Shown piece by piece: positions 3,002 through 34,620 of a stretch of 64,000 nucleotides of DNA. The first letter of the stretch is position 1; the number at the start of each line of letters is the position of its first letter. The stretch lies in IMG/VR virus record IMGVR_UViG_3300024358_000470; one strand, given 5' to 3'. The notes beneath the pieces are model-generated. The model saw only the letters and a program-made list of their open reading frames with translations. It was not told the DNA's origin and searched no databases. Made by a program: the position numbers and the translations under genes. This DNA is from an uncultured virus (IMG/VR IMGVR_UViG_3300024358_000470) (lineage: Duplodnaviria > Heunggongvirae > Uroviricota > Caudoviricetes).

Positions 3002-3009
3002 TATAAATA
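3002..3009 (+). promoter_or_regulatory. T4-type late promoter
   Basis: TATAAATA 20 nt upstream of ATG 3030. Confidence 0.8.
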
Positions 3010-3029
3010 CCTAAAAAGTATTATTAAAA

Positions 3030-3578
3030 ATGGACGCGCAAGAATTTCGTAGTCTTCAAGAAGCATATATGGAAGTTGTTGAGGGTGCCTCAGGAGATGT
3101 TGCTGATAGAGCAGCAAAACTTGAAAGGCAAAAAAAGGGACAAACTCCCGAAAGACAGGAGATGTATAGGAAACTTAAAAATAAAGCACGATCAAGAGAA
3201 GAAGAACCAGAAACTATAAAACGACATCAATCTCTTGGACATAAGGGGGGAGGTACTTTTGGTGCTGGTGGGCATATGAGAACTGGAATGACTCAATCGG
3301 ATAGAGACAGAAACAGAGAAGCAGCAGCAACAAGATCTAGACGACTTTCTCCTTATGATCCAAAATATAAAAAACATACAGAAGGTTCTGGAACAGTAAC
3401 CAAAAATCCTAAGAAACTTCGTAAGCAACAAGCGATGGGTGAGATTGGAGAAAACTTTGACCTTTACGATATTATCCTCTCACACTTACTTGATGAAGGA
3501 TATGCTGAAACACCAGAAGCAGCAGAAGCAATTATGGTGAATATGAGCGAAGAGTGGAGAGAGAGTATTATTGGTTGA
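3030..3578 (+). CDS. Late modular protein (DEGYA-motif family), probable virion-internal protein
   Basis: Shares LLDEGYAET..A.AIM.NMSEEWR and TKNPKKLRKQ.AMGE modules with 10982..12187. Confidence 0.7.
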   Translation: MDAQEFRSLQEAYMEVVEGASGDVADRAAKLERQKKGQTPERQEMYRKLKNKARSREEEPETIKRHQSLGHKGGGTFGAGGHMRTGMTQSDRDRNREAAATRSRRLSPYDPKYKKHTEGSGTVTKNPKKLRKQQAMGEIGENFDLYDIILSHLLDEGYAETPEAAEAIMVNMSEEWRESIIG

Positions 3579-3644
3579 TAAATATTAGTGCTTGTTTGTG
3601 GTTATTCAAGCAAAGGATTGGGGGCAGAAATGCTCCTTTTCTTT
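3579..3644 (+). ncRNA. Putative antisense small RNA or anti-RBS leader of GIY-YIG gene
   Basis: TAAATA, hairpin TGCTTG/CAAGCA, terminator GGGGCA-GAAA-TGCTCC-TTTT; 3592-3605 is complementary to 3656-3669. Confidence 0.55.
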
Positions 3645-3652
3645 TATAAATA
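3645..3652 (+). promoter_or_regulatory. T4-type late promoter
   Basis: TATAAATA upstream of GIY-YIG ATG 3675. Confidence 0.8.
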
Positions 3653-3674
3653 ACTATAACCACAAACAAAGCAG

Positions 3675-4082
3675 ATGGAAAGGTATTACGTTTACGCTTA
3701 TTTGCGTGAAGATAGATATTCTCCTTACTACATTGGGAAAGGTTCTGGATTTAGAGACACAAATAAAAGAAAGTTAGGATTAGCTCAACGACCTCCTGAT
3801 AGAGATAGAATAGTAAGAATAAAAGAAAACTTAACAGAACAAGAAGCATTATCTTTGGAAATAGCACTCATAAAGTTTTGGGGTAAAAAAGATAGTGGTG
3901 GTGTATTGGTTAATAAAACCGATGGTGGTGAAGGTACTTCTGGATCAAAAAGAGATAAAGCGTCAAGACAGAAAACCGGTATGTCTATGAAGGGGAAACC
4001 TGCTTGGAACAAAGGTATGAAGTTTCCTCCTGGAACATTTGGAAGACCAGTTAAGAATAATGTAGTAGAAACCACACTTTAA
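3675..4082 (+). CDS. Free-standing GIY-YIG homing endonuclease with NUMOD3-like motif
   Basis: YVYAY...PYYIGKG...R, EALSLE, LVNKTDGGEG, C-terminal KGKPAWNKG. Confidence 0.85.
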   Translation: MERYYVYAYLREDRYSPYYIGKGSGFRDTNKRKLGLAQRPPDRDRIVRIKENLTEQEALSLEIALIKFWGKKDSGGVLVNKTDGGEGTSGSKRDKASRQKTGMSMKGKPAWNKGMKFPPGTFGRPVKNNVVETTL

Positions 4083-4166
4083 AAATAATAAAAACTGTTA
4101 TAAATTATTAATGATCGCCTTATTGGGATCACAAAATCAAACCTCGCTTTCAAAGGAGCTACTATA

Positions 4167-4601
4167 ATGACTAACCTCATGCGATATACCGCGTCGGATC
4201 TTCCTGCCCTATTGGAAAGGATTAACCGCAATAGTATTGGAATGGATGAATATTTTGATCGTCTATTTAATCTTCATGAAACAACTTCTAATTACCCCCC
4301 ATATAACCTTGTTCAAGTTAGTAATGTAGAATCACGACTCGAACTTGCACTTGCCGGATTTAAGAAGGAGGAAGTACATGTATACACGGAGTATGGAAAA
4401 CTTTTTGTCGAAGGACAGAAGGAAGATAGGGAGTCCGATACCAACTACATCCATAAGGGATTGGCTCAACGATCTTTCAAGAGAGCATGGACATTATCAG
4501 ATGATACAACCATTAAAGAAGTTCTATTCGAGGATGGATTGCTAACCGTTGTTCTTGGTAAGATTGTTCCTGAGCACCATGCACGAAAGGATTATCTCTA
4601 A
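4167..4601 (+). CDS. hsp20: Small heat shock protein Hsp20
   Basis: NYPPYNL, LALAGF, HKGLAQRSF, FEDGLL; AGGAG RBS. Confidence 0.95.
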   Translation: MTNLMRYTASDLPALLERINRNSIGMDEYFDRLFNLHETTSNYPPYNLVQVSNVESRLELALAGFKKEEVHVYTEYGKLFVEGQKEDRESDTNYIHKGLAQRSFKRAWTLSDDTTIKEVLFEDGLLTVVLGKIVPEHHARKDYL

Positions 4602-4615
4602 ATAAAAATAAAAAA

Positions 4616-4777
4616 ATGAAATCTTTTGACGAGTTCAAAACAATTGCATATAAGGGAGCAATCCCACATACTGTTTATTCTCAAGGAAAACAAAAGCAAG
4701 TTCCAAAAGGAAAAGCAGTTCCTGTAAGAAGTCGTTCAAGTGCTGGTGGTAATGGAGATGGTGACGGTGGGGAATAA
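4616..4777 (+). CDS. Small late protein with CTS-like N-terminus
   Basis: 53-aa ORF MKSFDEFKTIAYKG... read manually, after TAAATA at 4599. Confidence 0.55.
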   Translation: MKSFDEFKTIAYKGAIPHTVYSQGKQKQVPKGKAVPVRSRSSAGGNGDGDGGE

Positions 4778-4800
4778 ATAGTATTGAATATCGTCGGCGC

Positions 4801-4853
4801 GAGGAGCACCTGGCAAAATCCAGGTTGACTCCTCCTTTTTTTGTTGCTACAAT
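4801..4853 (+). terminator. Intrinsic terminator overlapping a sigma70-type promoter
   Basis: GAGGAG-C-ACCTGG..CCAGGT-TGA-CTCCTC plus T-run; TTGACT(4825)-17 nt-TACAAT(4848). Confidence 0.7.
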
Positions 4854-10934: not shown

Positions 10935-10960
10935 CCCTTCGGGGTCTTTTTTTATAAATA
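10933..10960 (+). terminator. UUCG terminator abutting late promoter TATAAATA (10953-10960)
   Basis: GACCC-TTCG-GGGTC-T7 then TATAAATA. Confidence 0.85.
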
Positions 10961-10981
10961 ACTAAAAAAGTATTTGTAAAA

Positions 10982-12187
10982 ATGGATTCTAAAATTTTTA
11001 GAGAGGCAGCTCTTGCATATCAAGCAGTTTATGATGAGGAACTCCGCCAAGAGATTAAAGAGCAGCAAGAATTTGAGAACTGGGTCAATTCTCTTATTGA
11101 AGAAGGTTATGACCTGAGTGAGTATACTTGGGAAGAGATGTATGAGGCATATTTGAGCGAAATTCCCACATCAACACAGATGGGTGGAAAACCTGCACCT
11201 GCAGCAAAACCACAAGCACCTGTAATGACTGCATTTTCTGCTGGTGGTGGTAAAGCAAAAGTTCAAAAATTAATGAAAACTGGAATGAGTGGTGTTGAGG
11301 CAAACAGAAGAGTCTCTACAACTGGTGAATATCTCCAAAAGCAAGCAGCAAAACCCCCTGCAGCAAAACCAGCAGCAAAACCAGCAGCAAAACCAGCAGC
11401 AAAACCAGCAGCAGCAAGACCAGCAGCAGCAAGACCAGCAGCAACCCCAGCAGCAAGACCAGCAGCAGCAAAACCAGCGCCAACTGCTCCTGCAACAAAA
11501 CCAGCACCAACCGCTGCAGCAAAACCAGCTCCTGGAACAAAGGCAGCAGGTCCAGAATCAATCAAACCAAAAACTCCAAATCCTTTAATGCAAAAGACAT
11601 TTGGATATCAAACTGGTAATGCTCCAGATCAACAAAAAGCAAAAGCTGATGCTATTGTAAAGAGTGGTGCCGTTGCAGCACTAAAACCAACCCCAGCAGC
11701 AGCCCCTGCTCCAGTAAATAAGGCAACTGGTTCCAAAAAGCCAGGAAGTATTGTTTCTGGATTTGATATGTTCGATATTGTAAAAGGATATTTGCTCGAT
11801 GAAGGATATGCTGAAACTGAAGAGGCAGCAATCGCTATTATGGCAAATATGAGTGAAGAGTGGAGATCTGAAATTATTTCTGAAGCAGAAGGTTCATACG
11901 GCGAAACTCCAAAAGCATATAGTGCAGCATTAAAAACCAAGATGACTGCAAAGAGAAAGCCATTCTTAAAAGCAATGCAAAGGAGAACCAATCCTGCCAA
12001 CAGAAAGGATGCTTATGGTTCTCCAAGAAAGGGTCTAACTGCCGATGATAGAGAAAGAGCAAGAGCAGGTTCTGCTCACGGTGTAGGAACTCGTGCCGAC
12101 CACGATTATCCTTCAGAGGGTCCTGGTGGAATTACTAAGAATCCTAAGAAACTCCGTAAGCAAAAAGCAATGGGTGAGCACGACTGA
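10982..12187 (+). CDS. Late modular protein (DEGYA-motif family) with Pro/Ala/Lys linker, probable virion-internal protein
   Basis: LIEEGYDLSEYTWEEMYE, PAAK repeats, LLDEGYAET..NMSEEWR, TKNPKKLRKQKAMGE. Confidence 0.75.
   Translation: MDSKIFREAALAYQAVYDEELRQEIKEQQEFENWVNSLIEEGYDLSEYTWEEMYEAYLSEIPTSTQMGGKPAPAAKPQAPVMTAFSAGGGKAKVQKLMKTGMSGVEANRRVSTTGEYLQKQAAKPPAAKPAAKPAAKPAAKPAAARPAAARPAATPAARPAAAKPAPTAPATKPAPTAAAKPAPGTKAAGPESIKPKTPNPLMQKTFGYQTGNAPDQQKAKADAIVKSGAVAALKPTPAAAPAPVNKATGSKKPGSIVSGFDMFDIVKGYLLDEGYAETEEAAIAIMANMSEEWRSEIISEAEGSYGETPKAYSAALKTKMTAKRKPFLKAMQRRTNPANRKDAYGSPRKGLTADDRERARAGSAHGVGTRADHDYPSEGPGGITKNPKKLRKQKAMGEHD
11346..11530 (+). repeat. Coding tandem repeats (CCAGCAGCAAAA units; PAAK/PAAAR)
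   Basis: Visible 12-15 bp tandem units. Confidence 0.9.
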
Positions 12188-12255: not shown

Positions 12256-12327
12256 GGGGTGTTCGTATAACGGTTATTACTCTGGATTTGCATTCCAGCA
12301 ATAAGGATTCGATTTCCTTACACTCCA
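12256..12327 (+). tRNA. tRNA-Ala(UGC)
   Basis: Acceptor GGGGTGT/ACACTCC with G3.U70 and A73; anticodon stem CTGGA/TCCAG, loop TTTGCAT. Confidence 0.85.
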
Positions 12328-12364
12328 TACAGAATAATAAATACTTGAAAGAGTATTTGTATAA

Positions 12365-13054
12365 ATGGCTGGCGAACAGGGGTTTATCTACGAAGGTAAA
12401 ATTCATAGAAAATTGTTGTCTAAAAAATTAGTGCCTCCGGGATTTACTCCAGCAGGTTCTGATTCTAATGCACCAGACGCAATGTTTTTATATAATAAAA
12501 AACCATATAAACTTGAAGTAAAACTTGATTTGAAAGCCGATTATGGTCAAGGAACCTTAGAATATCAGAATGGAAGATGGGTTCTTGGTGGAGCAAAAAC
12601 TGCCGCAGCTGAAGAACTTAGAAATTTAATGAGAACTGTTGGCATTGAAAATTTTGCAAATAAGCAATGGGGACCTAAAGGACCACCAAATAAAGGAATC
12701 ATTGATAATAAAGCAATGACTGATGATATGGTAAAATCTGACTATGCGAGATTTACTGATGCATTTTTACCAATTAAATCAAGTGCTTTATGGGGTTACT
12801 ATGGTTCTAAACAAACTTATTATATTCAAATTGGTGGATATGGATTATATTATATGGCAGCAAACCCTGCCGGTCTTCCAGTTCCTCAATTTAATCCTGG
12901 TTTGAGAATTAGATTGAGGTTGAAAAGAGGTGGGAGTGGAACAATCTATAATTATAGATTTACAACCGCATTGCAAATCACAAATAAACCACCAAAATCA
13001 AAGTATGATATTGATAAAGGAGTTGATTTTTTACTTGCACAATATGCAAAGTAA
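12365..13054 (+). CDS. Putative PD-(D/E)xK nuclease-fold protein
   Basis: FIYE...APDAMF...KLEVK spacing resembles restriction-endonuclease fold; TAAATA upstream. Confidence 0.5.
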   Translation: MAGEQGFIYEGKIHRKLLSKKLVPPGFTPAGSDSNAPDAMFLYNKKPYKLEVKLDLKADYGQGTLEYQNGRWVLGGAKTAAAEELRNLMRTVGIENFANKQWGPKGPPNKGIIDNKAMTDDMVKSDYARFTDAFLPIKSSALWGYYGSKQTYYIQIGGYGLYYMAANPAGLPVPQFNPGLRIRLRLKRGGSGTIYNYRFTTALQITNKPPKSKYDIDKGVDFLLAQYAK

Positions 13055-24572: not shown

Positions 24573-24701
24573 GTTTATAACCCACCATAAGGTGGGTTTT
24601 CTTGTAATGAGACTTTGAGTGACAATTAGAGCCGTGGAAAGTGCCCTTTGAGAAAAGGGTGTACCCCCTTTCTATACGGATGTAGAGTTCAATTAATTTT
24701 A

Positions 24702-25355
24702 ATGCTAAACTTCTTTACTGTAGCCGTTCCTCTTTTAGCAATGGTTACAACCAATACGGCATCACTGCCTTTCTCTAGTTATAAACTGCAAGGTCCTCCT
24801 CCCCCAGTGGATGAAAAACCTTATTCTATTATTAAAGAGTTTGAACCCGAGAAGACAGCAATCCTAGAGGTTGCACCACCAAAGCCAAAAGAGAAAAGAC
24901 TAATTTGTAAAGGGTGTAATGAACATGAGAATGCTACCCTGGCATTTTTCCAGGATCGTGGTATTAGAGACAGAAACGCCCTTGCTACCATCATGGGCAA
25001 TATTAGACAGGAATCAACATTCGTGCCTAACATTTGTGAAGGTGGTAGTAGAACCTCATACTATAATTGTGGAAGAGGTTATGGTTTGATACAATTTACT
25101 TCTGCTTCTCGTTATTATGGACTGGGTGCTTTTGCTAAAAAAATAGGAGGTAATCCTTCTACTGCTGATACTCAACTTCGGTATATTACTACTGAACCAC
25201 AATGGAAGAGTATTGAAAACAGAATGAAAGTTTCTGGAAAATCTATTGATAGGTATATGAATTATGCCTACGAATGGATTGGATGGGGACACCATGGAGC
25301 AAGAACACAATATGCTTATGACTATGCTAAACGATTGGTTCTTGCTGATGTCTAA
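24702..25355 (+). CDS. Phage-tail-lysozyme-like muramidase with signal/anchor N-terminus
   Basis: ALATIMGNIRQES...GYGLIQFT; hydrophobic N-terminus. Confidence 0.7.
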   Translation: MLNFFTVAVPLLAMVTTNTASLPFSSYKLQGPPPPVDEKPYSIIKEFEPEKTAILEVAPPKPKEKRLICKGCNEHENATLAFFQDRGIRDRNALATIMGNIRQESTFVPNICEGGSRTSYYNCGRGYGLIQFTSASRYYGLGAFAKKIGGNPSTADTQLRYITTEPQWKSIENRMKVSGKSIDRYMNYAYEWIGWGHHGARTQYAYDYAKRLVLADV

Positions 25356-25420
25356 ATAACTTTACCTGACTTGCTGACACTTTTCAGGTGGGATTGGAGT
25401 GCTTCGGCACTCCTTTCTTG
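25353..25420 (+). ncRNA. Putative antisense small RNA or anti-RBS leader of GIY-YIG gene
   Basis: TAAATA, hairpin ACCTGA/TCAGGT, terminator GGAGTGC-TTCG-GCACTCC-TTT; 25366-25379 is complementary to 25433-25446. Confidence 0.55.
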
Positions 25421-25428
25421 TATAAATA
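25421..25428 (+). promoter_or_regulatory. T4-type late promoter
   Basis: TATAAATA upstream of ATG 25453. Confidence 0.8.
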
Positions 25429-25452
25429 GTAATGTCAGCAAGTTAGAGTAGT

Positions 25453-26112
25453 ATGAAACACTTTTATGTGTATTATTCCTATGAGGAATATGGAAGAGGT
25501 TATATTGGAAAAAGAGAATGTAAATGTCTTCCAGAAGAAGATGTAAGTTATTTTGGAAGTTTCAAAGATAAAACTTTCAATCCAACTCAAAAAATAATAT
25601 TAGAAACTTTTGGGAGTGTTGAAGAAGCACTTGAAGCAGAATGTGCTCTCCACGATTTTTATGAAGTAGATAAAAATCCACACTTTGCTAATAGGGCAAA
25701 ACAAACTTCTACTGGATTTTATTGTAATAAAGGTGCTGGTGAAGAAGCAAACAAGAAAAGAAGTGAGTTGATGAAAACAGAATACAATCCTATGAGTAAT
25801 CCAAAACTCAAAGAGAAAGCAAGAAAAAACTTGATTAGAACTTTGAGTAATCCAGAAATGAGAAAACTAAAAAGTAGAGTTGGAAAGAAAGCACACAATC
25901 GTCCAGAAGTAGTTGAGAACCATAGACAGGCAGCACTCAAATCTCATCAAAATCCAGAAACAAAAAGAAAACATATTGAGGCAAAACTTGGTGAGAAAAA
26001 TCCTTGTTATGGTAAAAAGTGGATTACAAATGGAAATGAAAACAAATACATAAACTCTATTGATGAAGTTCCAAGTGGTTTTTGGTATGGTAGAGTTTTC
26101 ATAAATACCTAA
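25453..26112 (+). CDS. Free-standing GIY-YIG (Seg-like) homing endonuclease
   Basis: YVYYSY..GRGYIGKR, YFGS, EALEAE, FANRA; basic helical repeats, GEKNPCYGKKWITNG tail. Confidence 0.85.
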   Translation: MKHFYVYYSYEEYGRGYIGKRECKCLPEEDVSYFGSFKDKTFNPTQKIILETFGSVEEALEAECALHDFYEVDKNPHFANRAKQTSTGFYCNKGAGEEANKKRSELMKTEYNPMSNPKLKEKARKNLIRTLSNPEMRKLKSRVGKKAHNRPEVVENHRQAALKSHQNPETKRKHIEAKLGEKNPCYGKKWITNGNENKYINSIDEVPSGFWYGRVFINT

Positions 26113-26127
26113 AAAGTACTTATAAAG

Positions 26128-27330
26128 ATGCAGTTTCAAGAAGAAATCCTTGATGAAAGGACTTTGATGGTAGGGAAAAAAGTTAGACCTTCCGGAACTA
26201 TGAATATGCGTGGATCAGAAGGTGCCGCGAGAAAAGATGTTTCTCGTGCGGGGTTTAGGAAAAAAGGTCCCATTCAAGATCCAAAAGTAGAAAAGAGTGG
26301 AAAAGATGTTCCTGTTTGGGTAAGAACTCATAAGTCTCCTGGAGATTATGCTGCTCATACTGCAAGAAAGCAACATAGAGAGGGTGATAAGCCACAGAGT
26401 AAAGAATTAAAAAAACAGTTTGGTAAAACTGGTGCTAAGAAAGATTCTCCAGTTCATGATATCACTGTTGGTTCTCCAAAATCTAAAGTAAAAGATCCCG
26501 GACAAAGAGCAAGACAATTTGTTGGTGCTCTCAAAGGCGTAAAAGATACTATGAAGTCAAAGAAAGGAGTTGCTACAAATACTCCTACTGCTATTGATTC
26601 TGCTAAGTCTAAGGGTAAAAAGAGTAGAAGTGGTGAGGAAGGTGCAGAACAAAGAGGTAGAATTTATAAGAAACTAGGAATGGGAGAAAGAAATCCCAAG
26701 ACTGGTGTTCAGATGGCGAAGTTGAGTGATTCCTTTAATGGAAAAACTTTTAGTGAGTTTATATATGAGTGTTATATTATTTTAGAAGCAAGAAAATATA
26801 CTAGAATCCGTTCTAGAGAAGATGCTGAGAAAATTCGACAATCACAAGAAAATCCAAATGCTTATAGATTAAAAAATAGACAAACTGCAGAAACTCCATA
26901 TTGGGGACTAGAATCCAAAGAAAAAAGAAAAGACCAAGATGAAAGGAGAAAAGAAAATCTAAAAGCGATTAGTCATAAAGAGTTGGAAGATCATTGTAAA
27001 AGAAATTTGCATCCGGGTGATTGTAAAAAAAATGCGAATAGAGCATTAAGAATTGAAAGGGGAAGGAAAAAGTCTCAAAGAGATGAGGCAAAAAGTAAGT
27101 CTCAGGAAACAGGGCAAAAGCATGATGTAGATCATATTCAAGCACAACCAAATAGAAGAAGTGAAACAACAAAATCAAGATTTCAAGCAATTCATCCGGG
27201 TGATTCTTCTGATAATAGGAGAGTAATTCCAAGTAGAGAAAATCGTGAAAAAAATTCTAGTAATACTGAAAAATCAACGACTAGATCTGGTGCTCTTATG
27301 AGAGCCCTTCAAAGAGCTAGACAAAAATAA
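26128..27330 (+). CDS. Basic two-module late protein with C-terminal HNH-like motif
   Basis: Internal KTFSEFIYECYIILEA; HDVDHIQ...N.R....N. Confidence 0.6.
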   Translation: MQFQEEILDERTLMVGKKVRPSGTMNMRGSEGAARKDVSRAGFRKKGPIQDPKVEKSGKDVPVWVRTHKSPGDYAAHTARKQHREGDKPQSKELKKQFGKTGAKKDSPVHDITVGSPKSKVKDPGQRARQFVGALKGVKDTMKSKKGVATNTPTAIDSAKSKGKKSRSGEEGAEQRGRIYKKLGMGERNPKTGVQMAKLSDSFNGKTFSEFIYECYIILEARKYTRIRSREDAEKIRQSQENPNAYRLKNRQTAETPYWGLESKEKRKDQDERRKENLKAISHKELEDHCKRNLHPGDCKKNANRALRIERGRKKSQRDEAKSKSQETGQKHDVDHIQAQPNRRSETTKSRFQAIHPGDSSDNRRVIPSRENREKNSSNTEKSTTRSGALMRALQRARQK

Positions 27331-27781: not shown

Positions 27782-27863
27782 GGGTAGGTGTCCGAGTGGT
27801 TAATGGAGGCGGACTGTAAATCCGCTGGCTCTGCCTACGGGGGTTCAAATCCCTCCCTGCCCA
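27782..27863 (+). tRNA. tRNA-Tyr(GUA)
   Basis: Cloverleaf, loop CTGTAAA, long variable arm. Confidence 0.93.
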
Positions 27864-27866
27864 CCT

Positions 27867-27938
27867 GGTCCCTTCGTCTAGCGGTTAGGACACCACCCTT
27901 TCACGGTGTAGACACGGGTTCGATTCCCGTAGGGACTA
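27867..27938 (+). tRNA. tRNA-Glu(UUC)
   Basis: Loop CTTTCAC, GGTTCGATTCC. Confidence 0.92.
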
Positions 27939-27940
27939 TT

Positions 27941-28032
27941 GGAAGTGTGGCAGAGAGGTCTAATGCAGTGGATTGCTAATCCGCCGATGTACCTAAGTGC
28001 ATCCGTTGGTTCGAATCCAACCACTTCCGCCA
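27941..28032 (+). tRNA. tRNA-Ser(GCU)
   Basis: Loop TTGCTAA, long variable arm, encoded CCA. Confidence 0.93.
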
Positions 28033-28104
28033 GGGAGATTAGCTCAGTGGTAGAGCAATGTGCTGATAACGCAGAGGTCGGTGGTTCAAATCCACCATTT
28101 CCCA
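28033..28104 (+). tRNA. tRNA-Ile(GAU)
   Basis: Loop CTGATAA, canonical D and T arms. Confidence 0.92.
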
Positions 28105-28139
28105 CTTGACCAGTTTCCAAACAACTGGTACAATATAAG

Positions 28140-28204
28140 AGTTGAGAAATCAACTGCGGCATTCCCCTTCGGTAGGTTCAGGAATGGCGGCGATAGGAAC
28201 CTAC
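28140..28204 (+). ncRNA. Putative hairpin plus H-type pseudoknot RNA
   Basis: CATTCC/GGAATG and GTAGGTTC/GAACCTAC interleaved; downstream of promoter TTGACC-17 nt-TACAAT. Confidence 0.45.
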
Positions 28205-28209
28205 TTTAT

Positions 28210-28282
28210 GGGCACATAGCATAATGGATAATGCAACATCCTTCTAAGATGACGATTGGGGGTTCGAGTCCCTCTGTGCCTG
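28210..28282 (+). tRNA. tRNA-Arg(UCU)
   Basis: Loop CTTCTAA, GGTTCGAGTCC. Confidence 0.9.
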
Positions 28283-28365
28283 TTGGAGTTTATCTCCATA
28301 CATAAAAGTGATAGAGGGTAAGCCTCTGTTATATCCTTATGAGGTATATTACGCTTACTCCATCT

Positions 28366-28448
28366 GCTTCAGTGGTGGAACGGTAGACACAGCGGACTTA
28401 GAATCCGCCGCCTTAAAAAGCGTGGAAGTTCAAATCTTCTCTGGAGCA
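28366..28448 (+). tRNA. tRNA-Leu(UAG)
   Basis: Loop CTTAGAA, long variable arm. Confidence 0.92.
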
Positions 28449-28487
28449 CTTGACAATCAAACTTAAATAGTTTATGATTGTCTCATT

Positions 28488-28559
28488 GCGAAAGTAACTC
28501 AACGGTAGAGTCCCTGCCTTCCAAGCAGGTTGTTGCGAGTTCGAATCTCGTCTTTCGCT
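28488..28559 (+). tRNA. tRNA-Gly(UCC)
   Basis: Loop CTTCCAA, U73. Confidence 0.93.
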
Positions 28560-28599
28560 CTTGGTAGTCGTTATGCAGATAGCATAGAAAGACGCCAAA

Positions 28600-28669
28600 G
28601 GAAGTTAAGTCAAAGAATCGAGACAAGCAGACAATGCCCTTTGAACTGGTGTAAGTCCAGTAACTTCCT
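28600..28669 (+). ncRNA. tRNA-like RNA lacking a D-arm
   Basis: Acceptor GGAAGTT/AACTTCC plus T-arm ACTGG-TGTAAGT-CCAGT; TCAAAG/CTTTGA stem. Confidence 0.45.
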
Positions 28670-28673
28670 TTAT

Positions 28674-28746
28674 TCCCATCGACCGAGCAAGCGAACGGGC
28701 CTGACTGTTAATCAGAGATTGGTAGGGGCAGTACCTACGATGGGAG
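28674..28746 (+). tRNA. tRNA-Asn(GUU), atypical T-loop
   Basis: Acceptor TCCCATC/GATGGGA, loop CTGTTAA, T-loop GGCAGTA. Confidence 0.75.
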
Positions 28747-28749
28747 CTT

Positions 28750-28821
28750 GCCCGAATAGCTCAAAGGCAGAGCGTTTCGTTTACACCGAAAATGTTGGGG
28801 GTTCAAGTCCCTCTTCGGGCA
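28750..28821 (+). tRNA. tRNA-Val(UAC)
   Basis: Loop TTTACAC, GGTTCAAGTCC. Confidence 0.9.
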
Positions 28822-28875
28822 CTTTACTAAAACGAATACTTGTGTTATAAATAATAAAAGGTATTCGGTTCTATT

Positions 28876-29412
28876 ATGACTACTTGTTTAAACTGCGGGT
28901 GTGAGAACGATAAACCTAAGTTCTGCTCCCGTTCGTGTTCTGTAACCTATAATAATAAGAAGTCTCCTAAGAGGAAAAGAACTGGTTGGGACACCGCCAT
29001 CTGTAATTACTGCAGTGTAGAGTTTGACTATAAGAAAAAGAGTTCTACTGGCAAGTTCTGTTCTAACAAGTGTAGTGCTGCAGCCAAGAGACAATGGACA
29101 ATAGATAAGTGGAAAGTAGGAGAACTGAACCATACAGGGCAGGGTTATGTTCCCAGCGGTGTTCGTGCTTACTTATTAGAAGCGAGTGGGGGTAAGTGTT
29201 CCCTTTGTGGTTGGTCTGGAACAAACATTCATACCGGACGAACCTGCCTTGAGGTGGACCACATAGACGACGACCCTTTCAACCACGCCCCTGAAAATCT
29301 ACAAGTGGTCTGTCCCAACTGCCACGCACAAAAAACTTTACCACCCCAAAAGAGTAACGGTGGACGTTACAGTAAGGACAAGCAACATCCTAAGTTTTGT
29401 ATGAATAAGTAA
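28876..29412 (+). CDS. HNH homing endonuclease with N-terminal Zn-finger repeats
   Basis: CxxC/FCSxxC repeats; CSLCG..LEVDHID..N..ENLQVVCPNCH; TATAAATA at 28846. Confidence 0.9.
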   Translation: MTTCLNCGCENDKPKFCSRSCSVTYNNKKSPKRKRTGWDTAICNYCSVEFDYKKKSSTGKFCSNKCSAAAKRQWTIDKWKVGELNHTGQGYVPSGVRAYLLEASGGKCSLCGWSGTNIHTGRTCLEVDHIDDDPFNHAPENLQVVCPNCHAQKTLPPQKSNGGRYSKDKQHPKFCMNK

Positions 29413-29463
29413 AAAAATGAATCCCTCTGCTCCCATTTGCATAAATATTTCAAAAAGAGTATA

Positions 29464-29898
29464 ATGGAAAAACTTTATAAACTCTTGAGTGATGCACAGT
29501 CATCGCTTTTTGTTTTATTCCATAAAACTTGGGCATTTCACTGGAATGTTGTAGGTGAAGATTTCACTCAACTACATCAACTCTTTGGTGGTCAGTATGA
29601 GACTATGTTTGAAGAGATTGATCGTCTCTCAGAACATATGCGTTATCTGAATGTAAAACCTCTCAGTTCTCTCTCAAGAATGCTTGAGGTAACTCAAATC
29701 AAAGAGGCAGCAAGTTCAACCGGAGCAAAAGAAATGCTTCAAGAACTTCTTGATAACAATACCAAGTTTTGTGAATTGATGGGAGAAATTTCGGAAGAGT
29801 CTGAAAATCAAAAGTCATATGCTACAGCAAATTTAGTTCAAGATTTGATGGAATCTCATGGTAAGTTTGTTTGGCAGTTGAGAGCACACCTGCAATGA
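29464..29898 (+). CDS. dps: Dps-family ferritin-like protein
   Basis: FHWNVVG..F.QLH.LF..QY....EEID..SE. Confidence 0.9.
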   Translation: MEKLYKLLSDAQSSLFVLFHKTWAFHWNVVGEDFTQLHQLFGGQYETMFEEIDRLSEHMRYLNVKPLSSLSRMLEVTQIKEAASSTGAKEMLQELLDNNTKFCELMGEISEESENQKSYATANLVQDLMESHGKFVWQLRAHLQ

Positions 29899-29913
29899 TT
29901 AGGATGAAGAATA

Positions 29914-30165
29914 ATGATTTCAATAAGATGCAAAGATTGTAATAGAGAAATAACAGGACATCATTCAAAAACAGTGACCTGTGGTTGTCCTAATATGGCA
30001 ACAATTCGTGGAGATAAGATTTCAGCACTTGACTTATCTCGTATTGTTATGTTAAACTCTATTCAGAAAGAACAAAAATCAAATGTTCTGACTTCACAAG
30101 ATATTGCCTGGCAAGAGGCAAGACGCCAACGCAAAGTAAAGCGTTTGGATTTTGAGGTTCGTTGA
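29914..30165 (+). CDS. Small Cys-containing hypothetical protein
   Basis: CKDC...CGCPN. Confidence 0.7.
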   Translation: MISIRCKDCNREITGHHSKTVTCGCPNMATIRGDKISALDLSRIVMLNSIQKEQKSNVLTSQDIAWQEARRQRKVKRLDFEVR

Positions 30166-30175
30166 ACCTCCCACT

Positions 30176-30260
30176 GGAAAGGTGGTCGAGTGGTTGAAGG
30201 CTCTAGTCTTGAAAACTAGCGATGTGAAAGCATCCGTGGGTTCGAATCCCACCCTTTCCG
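30176..30260 (+). tRNA. tRNA-Ser(UGA)
   Basis: Loop CTTGAAA, long variable arm, G73. Confidence 0.93.
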
Positions 30261-34489: not shown

Positions 34490-34620
34490 AACTTATACTG
34501 GTGGAGTCAAAATGACCCTATTATGAGTTTATTGCCTCTCTCAAGGGCAATTGGTGCGGATGGGACTCTCTCCCGCCTGGTTTCTTGCCTCCAGTCAAAG
34601 GGCAAGTGGCGAGCCTGAGT
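34472..34620 (+). ncRNA. Structured RNA resembling cyanophage manA/wcaG motifs
   Basis: Repeat unit 2 plus stems ATTGCC/GGCAAT, GGGA/TCCC, CTTGCC/GGCAAG; upstream of an epimerase gene. Confidence 0.55.

Follow-up and report, generated by a model that had tools for sequence, protein, structure and literature searches.

A conserved cassette with an anti-leader hairpin, a terminator and two TAAATA boxes in front of homing endonuclease genes of T4-like cyanophages

Homing endonucleases are selfish nucleases which phages must restrain, and the textbook restraint is the hairpin acting in cis in phage T4. Here we describe a cassette of about 100 nucleotides (nt) with an antisense hairpin, which precedes two nuclease genes in the window, the whole stretch of 64,000 nt analysed from an uncultured virus (IMG/VR record IMGVR_UViG_3300024358_000470). 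The window is part of a contig of a T4-like cyanophage whose closest cultured relatives are freshwater Synechococcus phages, and the genome containing it has 204,829 bases. In freshwater and marine T4-like cyanophages the restraint now takes the form of a self-contained portable module, common to catalytically unrelated nucleases.

Hairpins enclosing a late promoter act as masks controlling I-TevI, I-TevII, I-TevIII, segB and mobE of phage Aeh1, and also the T4 late genes e and soc, according to the accessible text of the T4 source (PMC2988022). The cassette has both sequence-level marks of such a mask: a helix over the ribosome-binding region on transcripts coming from upstream, and a late promoter, TATAAATA, between the arms, which leaves the late mRNA without the 5' arm. 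As far as that source describes the T4 masks, the likeness extends to the limiting of a selfish nuclease. Unlike in the T4 masks, about 50 nt lie between the arms of the cassette and include an intrinsic terminator, and the 5' arm is in a hairpin of its own with the seed in the loop. A second, invariant TAAATA lies 5 nt upstream (this box is called P_up below, and the one between the arms P_down), and the two ends of the helix fall exactly on the two predicted transcription starts. Genes upstream of the cassette are late genes too, so the switch is not one of early versus late.

According to Dassa et al. (2009), hairpins precede 15 of the 16 free-standing endonucleases of cyanophage-like ocean loci, ten of these hairpins with TATAAATA; the authors read them as a mask in cis, as given in the accessible text (PMC2677866). 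These hairpins belong to the same phage group and the same kind of gene, and their complementary motifs are described as a stem around the late-promoter box; they probably overlap with the cassette family. The account treats a hairpin in cis only, and its accessible text mentions no upstream promoter box, terminator in the loop, local hairpin or separate RNA (PMC2677866).

The c4 antisense RNA of phages P1 and P7 (Rfam RF01695; Citron and Schuster 1990 as cited in PMC2864571 and PMC8198154) is, in what the citing papers relay, a small RNA upstream of its target, on the same strand and in the same operon direction, whose exposed bases pair with a ribosome site downstream and whose specificity varies between related phages. 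With a small RNA of its own, the cassette would be like it in these respects. The described target of c4 is the antirepressor operon of a temperate phage, and the cassette has no sequence or structure match to c4 in Rfam scans: over the window cassettes no family reached its gathering score, and five cassette loci gave sub-threshold rows at chance level. The c4 RNA is excised from a longer transcript and does not come from its own promoter and terminator. In the RNA-OUT/RNA-IN pair of IS10, the mRNA 5' end meets the loop and pairing proceeds down one side of the stem, the two RNAs being overlapping convergent transcripts. In IS10 and in type I pairs such as IstR-1/tisB, a mobile or selfish element curbs its own harmful protein through a small hairpin RNA, and the type I toxins are small membrane peptides. 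If the small RNA of the cassette exists, its geometry would be like that of RNA-OUT/RNA-IN, but unlike in IS10 both RNAs would be co-directional and non-overlapping. The cassette targets are nucleases of 135-261 amino acids (aa), not the small hydrophobic peptides of type I toxin-antitoxin systems.

The PeSL cassettes of T4-type phages are, like the present cassette, short conserved modules of promoter and stem-loop beside mobile variable genes; they combine an early promoter with one stem-loop and mark exchange points, according to the accessible text (PMC2839356, PMC4122927). Unlike the early sigma-70 type promoter of the PeSLs, both boxes of the present cassette are of the late type TAAATA; for the PeSLs, the same text describes no antisense to the next leader and does not mention cyanophages.

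In the literature outside subscription journals we found no small RNA described at cyanophage homing endonucleases, only the papers on cis hairpins and on CfrI. The accessible text of a 2025 review of phage small RNAs gives for cyanophages none beyond CfrI and four conserved RNA motifs (abiF, wcaG, manA and glnA), and the genome paper of phage S-SRM01 does not mention promoters, terminators or small RNAs. What is already known is the mask in cis with a nested late promoter; what is new is the invariant P_up, the fit of the helix ends, the covarying local hairpin and the copies beside divergent neighbours. If the upstream half makes a separate RNA, no homing endonuclease controlled by a small RNA would have been known before it, and it would provide a natural set of dozens of orthogonal short RNA/leader pairs. 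Copies in the cultured phage S-SRM01 make the cassette directly testable.

Architecture and distribution of the cassette

The order of elements is conserved: [A/C]TAAATA (P_up), 5 nt, a hairpin, an intrinsic terminator, TATAAATA (P_down), a leader of 17-25 nt and ATG. The 5' arm and loop of the hairpin are antisense to about the first 17 nt of the nuclease mRNA leader. Three copies are found in the genome, at 3577-3674 (cassette 1) and 25351-25452 (cassette 2) of the window and a third one outside it. The features of cassettes 1 and 2 are as follows (ORF, open reading frame; bp, base pairs).

3577-3584, plus strand: P_up of cassette 1, GATAAATA, with TAAATA at 3579-3584; it abuts the TGA stop of ORF 3030-3578 and fits the late motif NATAAATA.
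3589-3612, plus strand: local hairpin of cassette 1, TGCTTG (3589-3594) and CAAGCA (3607-3612) with a 12-nt loop; the anti-leader is 3589-3605.
3590-3644, plus strand: predicted 55-nt anti-leader RNA of cassette 1, its start placed at the 6th nt past TAAATA and its end in the T tract; it folds with -20.8 to -21.9 kcal/mol.
3620-3645, plus strand: intrinsic terminator of cassette 1, stem 3620-3637 of 7 bp with a GAAA loop, T tract TTTTCTTTT touching P_down; also found by a terminator consensus scan.
3645-3652, plus strand: P_down of cassette 1, consensus TATAAATA; predicted mRNA start 3657-3658.
3656-3673, plus strand: target of cassette 1, about the first 17 nt of the leader; it pairs with 3589-3605 by 14 bp, bulged A3670 and 3 bp, with a duplex of -19.3 kcal/mol from mRNA nt 1.
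25351-25358, plus strand: P_up of cassette 2, TCTAAATA, with TAAATA at 25353-25358; it overlaps the stop of ORF 24648-25355.
25364-25420, plus strand: predicted 57-nt anti-leader RNA of cassette 2, hairpin and terminator with T tract.
25421-25428, plus strand: P_down of cassette 2, TATAAATA; predicted mRNA start 25433-25434.
25433-25450, plus strand: target of cassette 2, TGTCAGCAAGTTAG, a bulged A and GTA; it stops 2 nt short of the ATG at 25453, with a duplex of -23.4 kcal/mol.

In cassette 1, positions 3592-3605 are the exact reverse complement of 3656-3669, and GCA at 3671-3673 pairs with TGC at 3589-3591, which leaves 1 nt before the ATG at 3675. The linker between its hairpin and terminator is AAGGATTG. 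A sequence-only reading made before this analysis had listed the elements of cassette 1 together with the pairing of 14 bp, bulged A and 3 bp, and direct reading confirmed every one of them at its coordinates. Cassette 2 has the hairpin ACCTGA (25364-25369) / TCAGGT (25384-25389), a GGATT linker and the terminator GGAGTGC-TTCG-GCACTCC (25396-25413). It pairs by the same scheme as cassette 1 with different arm and target sequences. The earlier description of its order, linker and pairing scheme holds as well, with the difference that one of the 14 pairs is G.U. In both cassettes (3638-3652 and 25414-25428) and in the aligned copies, the T tract of the terminator runs straight into TATAAATA of P_down.

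The third cassette lies on the minus strand of contig C1, before a nuclease-like ORF of 261 aa (ATG 73174). Its upstream box is a full TATAAATA; the local hairpin that follows contains one mismatch, and the cassette also has a terminator and an anti-leader of 15 bp. A strict whole-genome scan found no orphan small-RNA module without a nuclease; the same scan also misses the third cassette, with its hairpin mismatch. On the same strand of this contig, also outside the window, a 59-aa non-nuclease ORF (ATG 44329) is preceded by a classical T4-style hairpin of 15 bp, with a late-promoter box in the loop and a 3' arm reaching the ATG, without terminator and without a second box.

The family was collected from viral contigs. 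The starting set was made of relatives of both nucleases (26 and 80 loci), most of which are preceded by a cassette; alignment A1 holds 42 distinct cassettes of 44 rows, the two exclusions being an alternative start and a 9-bp chance hit in locus L059. Two pattern scans were added. One required both boxes and gave 129 loci of an estimated 1400 stretches, while the other required only P_down and an AGAGTAG leader and gave 121 loci of an estimated 360. The pooled set has 295 instances, of which 160 are unique in small-RNA region and leader, with 49 different loop seeds, each matching its own partner. P_down TATAAATA lies between the arms in all 160 unique copies, where the collecting pattern itself had required this box ahead of the leader. 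The two-box scan is bimodal: cognate duplexes are -16 kcal/mol or stronger (to about -28) in 93 of 129 loci and -10 or weaker in the other 36, with none between. About 1400 stored viral-contig stretches fit the loose pattern, and about 72% of the inspected matches are true copies.

The downstream ORFs fall into 12 N-terminal clusters and carry Pfam domains GIY-YIG, HNH_3, HNH, Endonuclease_7 and NUMOD3 (some NUMOD3 only); one of them, L183, passes the Pfam GIY-YIG cut-off with 37.4 bits. By these domain assignments, the cassette is common to unrelated nuclease families. On one viral contig of 19,139 bases (L155-L158), four cassettes with four different seeds are found within 19 kb, and the N-termini of their ORFs are two of the GIY-YIG-like YTYAYLRED kind, one of GIY-YIG type and one singleton.

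The cultured phage S-SRM01 has five canonical cassettes and one variant, and it was the only match when cassette 2 was compared by BLAST with cultured phages. The variant (L370, positions 77561-77665 of the S-SRM01 record) has an anti-leader whose pairing with the leader leaves no gap before the ATG, and its duplex starts from mRNA nt 5, not nt 1. Relatives in Sf-CH5, S-B43 and ACG-2014f have no cassette. Eight more distant relatives of nuclease 2 with 42-47% identity (L089, L091-L093, L095-L097 and L101) have another arrangement, a 9-bp hairpin GGTGGAAGT / ACTTCCACC directly flanking TATAAATA. About 20 nt separate its 3' arm from the ATG, and the start region is left uncovered.

Conserved pairing between loop and leader

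The pairing between the loop and its target is real and selected. RNAalifold found the helix unaided on unguided MAFFT alignments, with compensatory changes in 9 of 9 pairs in one alignment and 7 of 7 in the other, the latter made from copies pre-selected by a duplex filter. The sequence-only reading had named this covariation across homologous upstream regions as a check of its proposal, and the complementarity is indeed conserved. Among 57 representatives, 91.2% of the cells are paired against 61.7% in shuffles (0 of 500 as high) and double-change cells number 141 against 45.5, percentages that lean to pairing because this set had been pre-selected by a duplex filter; the weight is carried by the results from the unfiltered alignment (9 of 9 pairs) and the scans. 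When the partner was slid by 1-3 columns, the paired cells of the representatives dropped to 27-46%. Their cognate duplexes have a mean of -21.7 kcal/mol (range -16.4 to -25.0), against -9.2 for 3192 non-cognate pairs, and the seed is in a loop of 9-14 nt.

In the cassette family, G.U pairs number 140 and A.C mismatches only one. This excess means that the pairing is of RNA and of the sense strand, and a repeat at the DNA level is excluded. The bulged A lies on the mRNA side, between the bases that pair with nt 2 and nt 3 of the small RNA, and 135 of 160 copies have it. The pairing covers a weak Shine-Dalgarno-like AGAG and ends 2-9 nt ahead of the AUG. The other stems also covary, in representatives that had passed a duplex filter: the local hairpin is 94.7% paired with three of five pairs changed on both sides, and all six pairs of the terminator stem have changes on both sides.

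The fold depends on the length of the RNA. The short RNA alone folds into hairpin and terminator, with -21.9 kcal/mol (z -3.4) for cassette 1 and -23.6 (z -4.3) for cassette 2. The read-through RNA including the leader folds into the long-range helix, with -35.4 kcal/mol (z -6.2) and -42.6 (z -5.8), respectively, and 0 of 200 shuffles were as good. This helix is present in both the minimum-energy and the centroid folds and extends over the leader until 1-2 nt from the ATG. In its own fold the mRNA has an open 5' end, with the first 24 nt unpaired if the start is 3658.

For the chance expectation, we compared all 61 leaders of the 204,829-base genome that lie between a TAAATA box and an ORF with an ATG start and a length of 50 aa or more. 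Only four of them have an anti-leader as long as 14-15 bp, namely cassettes 1-3 and the classical promoter-in-loop hairpin; the other 57 have 4-12 bp. The complementarity of the cassettes is far from chance.

One transcript or two

We consider it somewhat better than an even bet that the cassette exerts dual control, in cis and in trans, with a separate anti-leader RNA of 47-63 nt. In cis, an upstream transcript passing the terminator would fold into the long-range helix and block the translation start of the nuclease, and only the mRNA started at P_down would be open for translation; the pairing is seen in the comparative data and the function is taken over from T4. By that analogy the T4-type translational mask in cis should certainly apply to the cassettes also. 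In trans, transcription from P_up would stop at the terminator and yield an RNA of 47-63 nt. Contact would begin between the loop of this RNA and the free 5' end of mRNA started at P_down; pairing would then proceed along the 5' arm and displace the local 3' arm. Upstream late mRNAs ending at the same terminator would bear the anti-leader at their 3' end and could act likewise. The effect would be that translation of a potentially harmful nuclease is damped and the adjoining late genes are spared.

The case for a separate RNA starts from the upstream box. In unique copies collected without requiring it (the P_down plus leader set), TAAATA is found at the expected upstream place in 84 of 85, and in 78 of 79 in a related count. 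Information content falls to about zero just upstream of it, and the 38-nt flanks represent 60 contexts. The single copy without TAAATA, L272, has there TATATAATA, which resembles a sigma-70 -10 box. The nuclease-less junctions of DSL-LC03 and S-SRM01 carry a plain terminator without such a TAAATA box, which makes the box part of the cassette, with which it moves. That TAAATA is merely the stop codon of the upstream ORF was considered and rejected, because the stops vary (TGA, TAA, various distances) and the box is constant. For cyanophages, the published late motif is NATAAATA (PMC2984593). In the genome, ATAAATA occurs 54 times on the coding strand against 6 on the other and CTAAATA 20 against 3, and by this strand bias both forms of P_up behave like late promoters. 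A sigma-70 scan gave no plus-strand site in 3446-4825 among the sites listed (60 of 72).

The geometry of the helix fits two predicted transcripts. In T4, transcription starts at the 6th nt after TAAATA. With this start, all 160 copies give a small RNA whose first nt is a purine and lies at the base of the hairpin. Pairing sets in at +1 of the small RNA in 135 of 160, and the far end of the helix is at most 1 nt from +1 of the mRNA in 157 of 160. Each predicted start is a purine (+1) preceded by T (-1). The TAAATA boxes repeat in direct orientation, whereas the 5' ends transcribed from them are inverted repeats of each other.

Four loci (L160, L189, L219 and L243) keep the full architecture beside a divergent upstream neighbour, where P_up is therefore the only visible source of an anti-leader. 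The ATG of the neighbour is 55-58 nt from P_up, and in the sequences of L160, L219 and L243 it has its own ATAAATA on the other strand. The neighbours in L160 and L243 are diverged homologues, so the divergent context is not brand new.

Several points weigh against a separate RNA, in addition to the filter bias of the 57 representatives. The frame upstream is co-directional in 107 of 124 copies, where a mask in cis alone would serve; of the 17 copies with an opposite frame, 5 were inspected, and 4 of these were convincing. P_up strays from the consensus more than P_down does, with NC-TAAATA in 31 of 78 copies, and may be a weak promoter. Its conservation may come partly from movement of the cassette by recombination at late-promoter boxes and not from transcription. 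The start at the 6th nt is a presumed one, the T4 rule transferred to cyanophage boxes. The RNA data are assembled contigs of riverine metatranscriptomes, where starts, ends and strand are not resolvable. The stretch is represented in 24 such runs, and among the four examined at cassette 1, contigs of two bridge the whole cassette (3518-4479 and 3518-4267). These bridging contigs fit read-through RNA, which is the substrate of a mask in cis, or DNA carried into the library. Runs X2 and X4 have no contig over 3547-3639 and 3547-3624, respectively, and their contigs resume at 3640 and 3625, a gap that proves nothing. All four runs break at 3546-3547, where strains most likely branch. Since each contig has a single depth value, depth does not serve to compare the small-RNA region with the gene.

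The strongest competing explanation is a T4-type mask acting in cis only, where the arm matters only on transcripts passing a leaky terminator, the terminator being the first lock and the helix the second, and where P_up is not a working promoter or its product has no role. It agrees with the mechanism established for I-TevI, I-TevII, I-TevIII, segB and Aeh1 mobE in the accessible T4 text (PMC2988022), and with the interpretation given in 2009 to the TATAAATA hairpins before cyanophage-like free-standing nucleases (PMC2677866, accessible text). The z values of the read-through helix (-6.2 and -5.8), the predominance of co-directional frames (107 of 124) and the contigs spanning the cassette in two of four RNA libraries also speak for it. 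Cassettes 1 and 2 both sit behind co-directional genes, and the ORF at 3030-3578 has a late-promoter motif of its own at 3002-3009; it is thus a late gene, and its transcripts enter cassette 1. This explanation leaves without reason the TAAATA kept at a fixed 5-nt spacing in 84 of 85 copies and 60 contexts, the helix ends which match both predicted starts, a covarying local hairpin that competes with the mask, and the whole upstream half kept beside divergent neighbours. We regard it as a substantial possibility, though a doubtful one. The sequence-only reading had offered a cis attenuator as an alternative, which is the wrong term: the alternative partner sits 3' of the terminator and cannot affect termination, and the attenuator reading was rejected.

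A real P_up could also work by occlusion, if polymerases from P_up and from upstream halt in the T tract and occlude or insulate P_down, and the complementarity is a mask in cis only. The direct contact of the T tract with TATAAATA of P_down, seen in the window and the aligned copies alike, speaks for this. Such tight packing may be mere economy, and occlusion explains neither the seed in the loop nor why the helix ends match both starts. We consider it very unlikely. Least credible, to the point of being nearly negligible, is a DNA element, in which the inverted repeat would be an operator, form a cruciform or be recognised by the nuclease. The arms do form an inverted repeat in DNA, and I-TevI is described as acting on an operator to repress its own late promoter, according to the accessible text (PMC2988022). 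The asymmetry of 140 G.U to 1 A.C is foreign to DNA pairing, the TAAATA boxes are direct repeats and not palindromic, and the arms vary freely (49 seeds). The module precedes catalytically unrelated nucleases, and the same box before unrelated families cannot be a nuclease-specific operator; the DNA operator, which the earlier reading had kept as an alternative, is rejected on these grounds.

Dual control with a separate anti-leader RNA remains the reading we prefer. The proposal of a separate trans-acting small RNA in the sequence-only reading is borne out in its promoter-like box, terminator, loop seed and cognate target for each nuclease in a conserved family, and the comparative evidence favours a discrete RNA, whose transcript ends, abundance and repression in trans are so far predictions. 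Its likeness to a type I antitoxin holds for the mechanism only, the target being a nuclease of 135-260 aa and not a small membrane toxin. The chances are about equal for and against the wider claim that each homing endonuclease gene has its own promoter-driven trans antisense RNA of about 55 nt, which would make an undescribed class of phage small RNA in an estimated thousand or so contig stretches, with the 49 seeds as private addresses. It is unlikely that the small RNA would silence the same-seed nuclease of a rival phage in mixed infection and so give anti-homing immunity.

The nuclease genes and their neighbourhood

The nuclease genes of the window and the late-promoter boxes around them are listed here.

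3675-4082, plus strand: nuclease gene 1, 135 aa, GIY-YIG-like by PHROG matches, conserved columns and structure model.
25453-26112, plus strand: nuclease gene 2, 219 aa, PHROG 'homing endonuclease'; NUMOD3 slightly below the Pfam cut-off.
3002-3009, plus strand: TATAAATA late-promoter motif of ORF 3030-3578, TAAATA at 3004, followed by a leader up to the ATG at 3030.
4099-4106, plus strand: TATAAATT box ahead of hsp20 (4167-4601), retained 3' of the inserted cassette; the same box is at the nuclease-less S-SRM01 junction.
26100-26107, plus strand: CATAAATA, late-promoter motif within the 3' end of nuclease gene 2, serving the gene that follows (ATG 26128).

Both nuclease ORFs match PHROG 314 'homing endonuclease'. 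Over 17 relatives of nuclease 1, the columns Y5, Y7, Y18, Y19, G21, R27, E62 and N80 (Y..Y..YIGKG..R..E..N) are invariant. Its AlphaFold model is confident over residues 1-80 (pLDDT about 85), and the best 10 chains in Foldseek are all GIY-YIG domains, in weak matches with E of 0.11-0.54. Neither nuclease reaches the Pfam GIY-YIG model, and sequence searches of the PDB with both gave chance-level rows only. The GIY-YIG assignment of nuclease 1 in the earlier reading is thus carried by the PHROG matches, the conserved columns and a weak fold match, and not by Pfam. Nuclease 1 is without the C-terminal tail of its 182-aa relatives (L019, L021 and L023), and the DNA diverges past about residue 117 in a deletion-like manner. 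In this shortened copy homing may have been lost with the cassette intact.

Nuclease 2 shows 48% identity with S-PM2p181, the ORF adjoining F-CphI. S-PM2p181 has no cassette, and its start is inside the F-CphI stop; upstream of F-CphI there are a terminator and ATAAATA only, and the known CfrI RNA is on the opposite strand. Since S-PM2p181 is without the cassette and CfrI is on the other strand, the published RNA work on S-PM2 does not bear on the cassette.

Cassette 2 is preceded by a tail-lysozyme-like ORF (24648-25355), whose TAA stop is part of P_up TCTAAATA. The position of the box at 26100-26107 within the 3' end of the nuclease ORF is the same arrangement as described for several T4 seg and mob genes. 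Many late-promoter boxes share a type of leader, TAAATA followed by a ACTAAAAAGTATT-like sequence and TAAAAATG, at 3004-3032, 10955-10984, 12338-12367 and 26102-26130 of the window and in the rest of the genome, which suggests a shared leader element of late genes. The window also has a wcaG RNA motif (Rfam RF01761) at 34523-34620 with 102.9 bits, and ten tRNA genes (27782-30260 and 12256-12327), nine of which are clustered.

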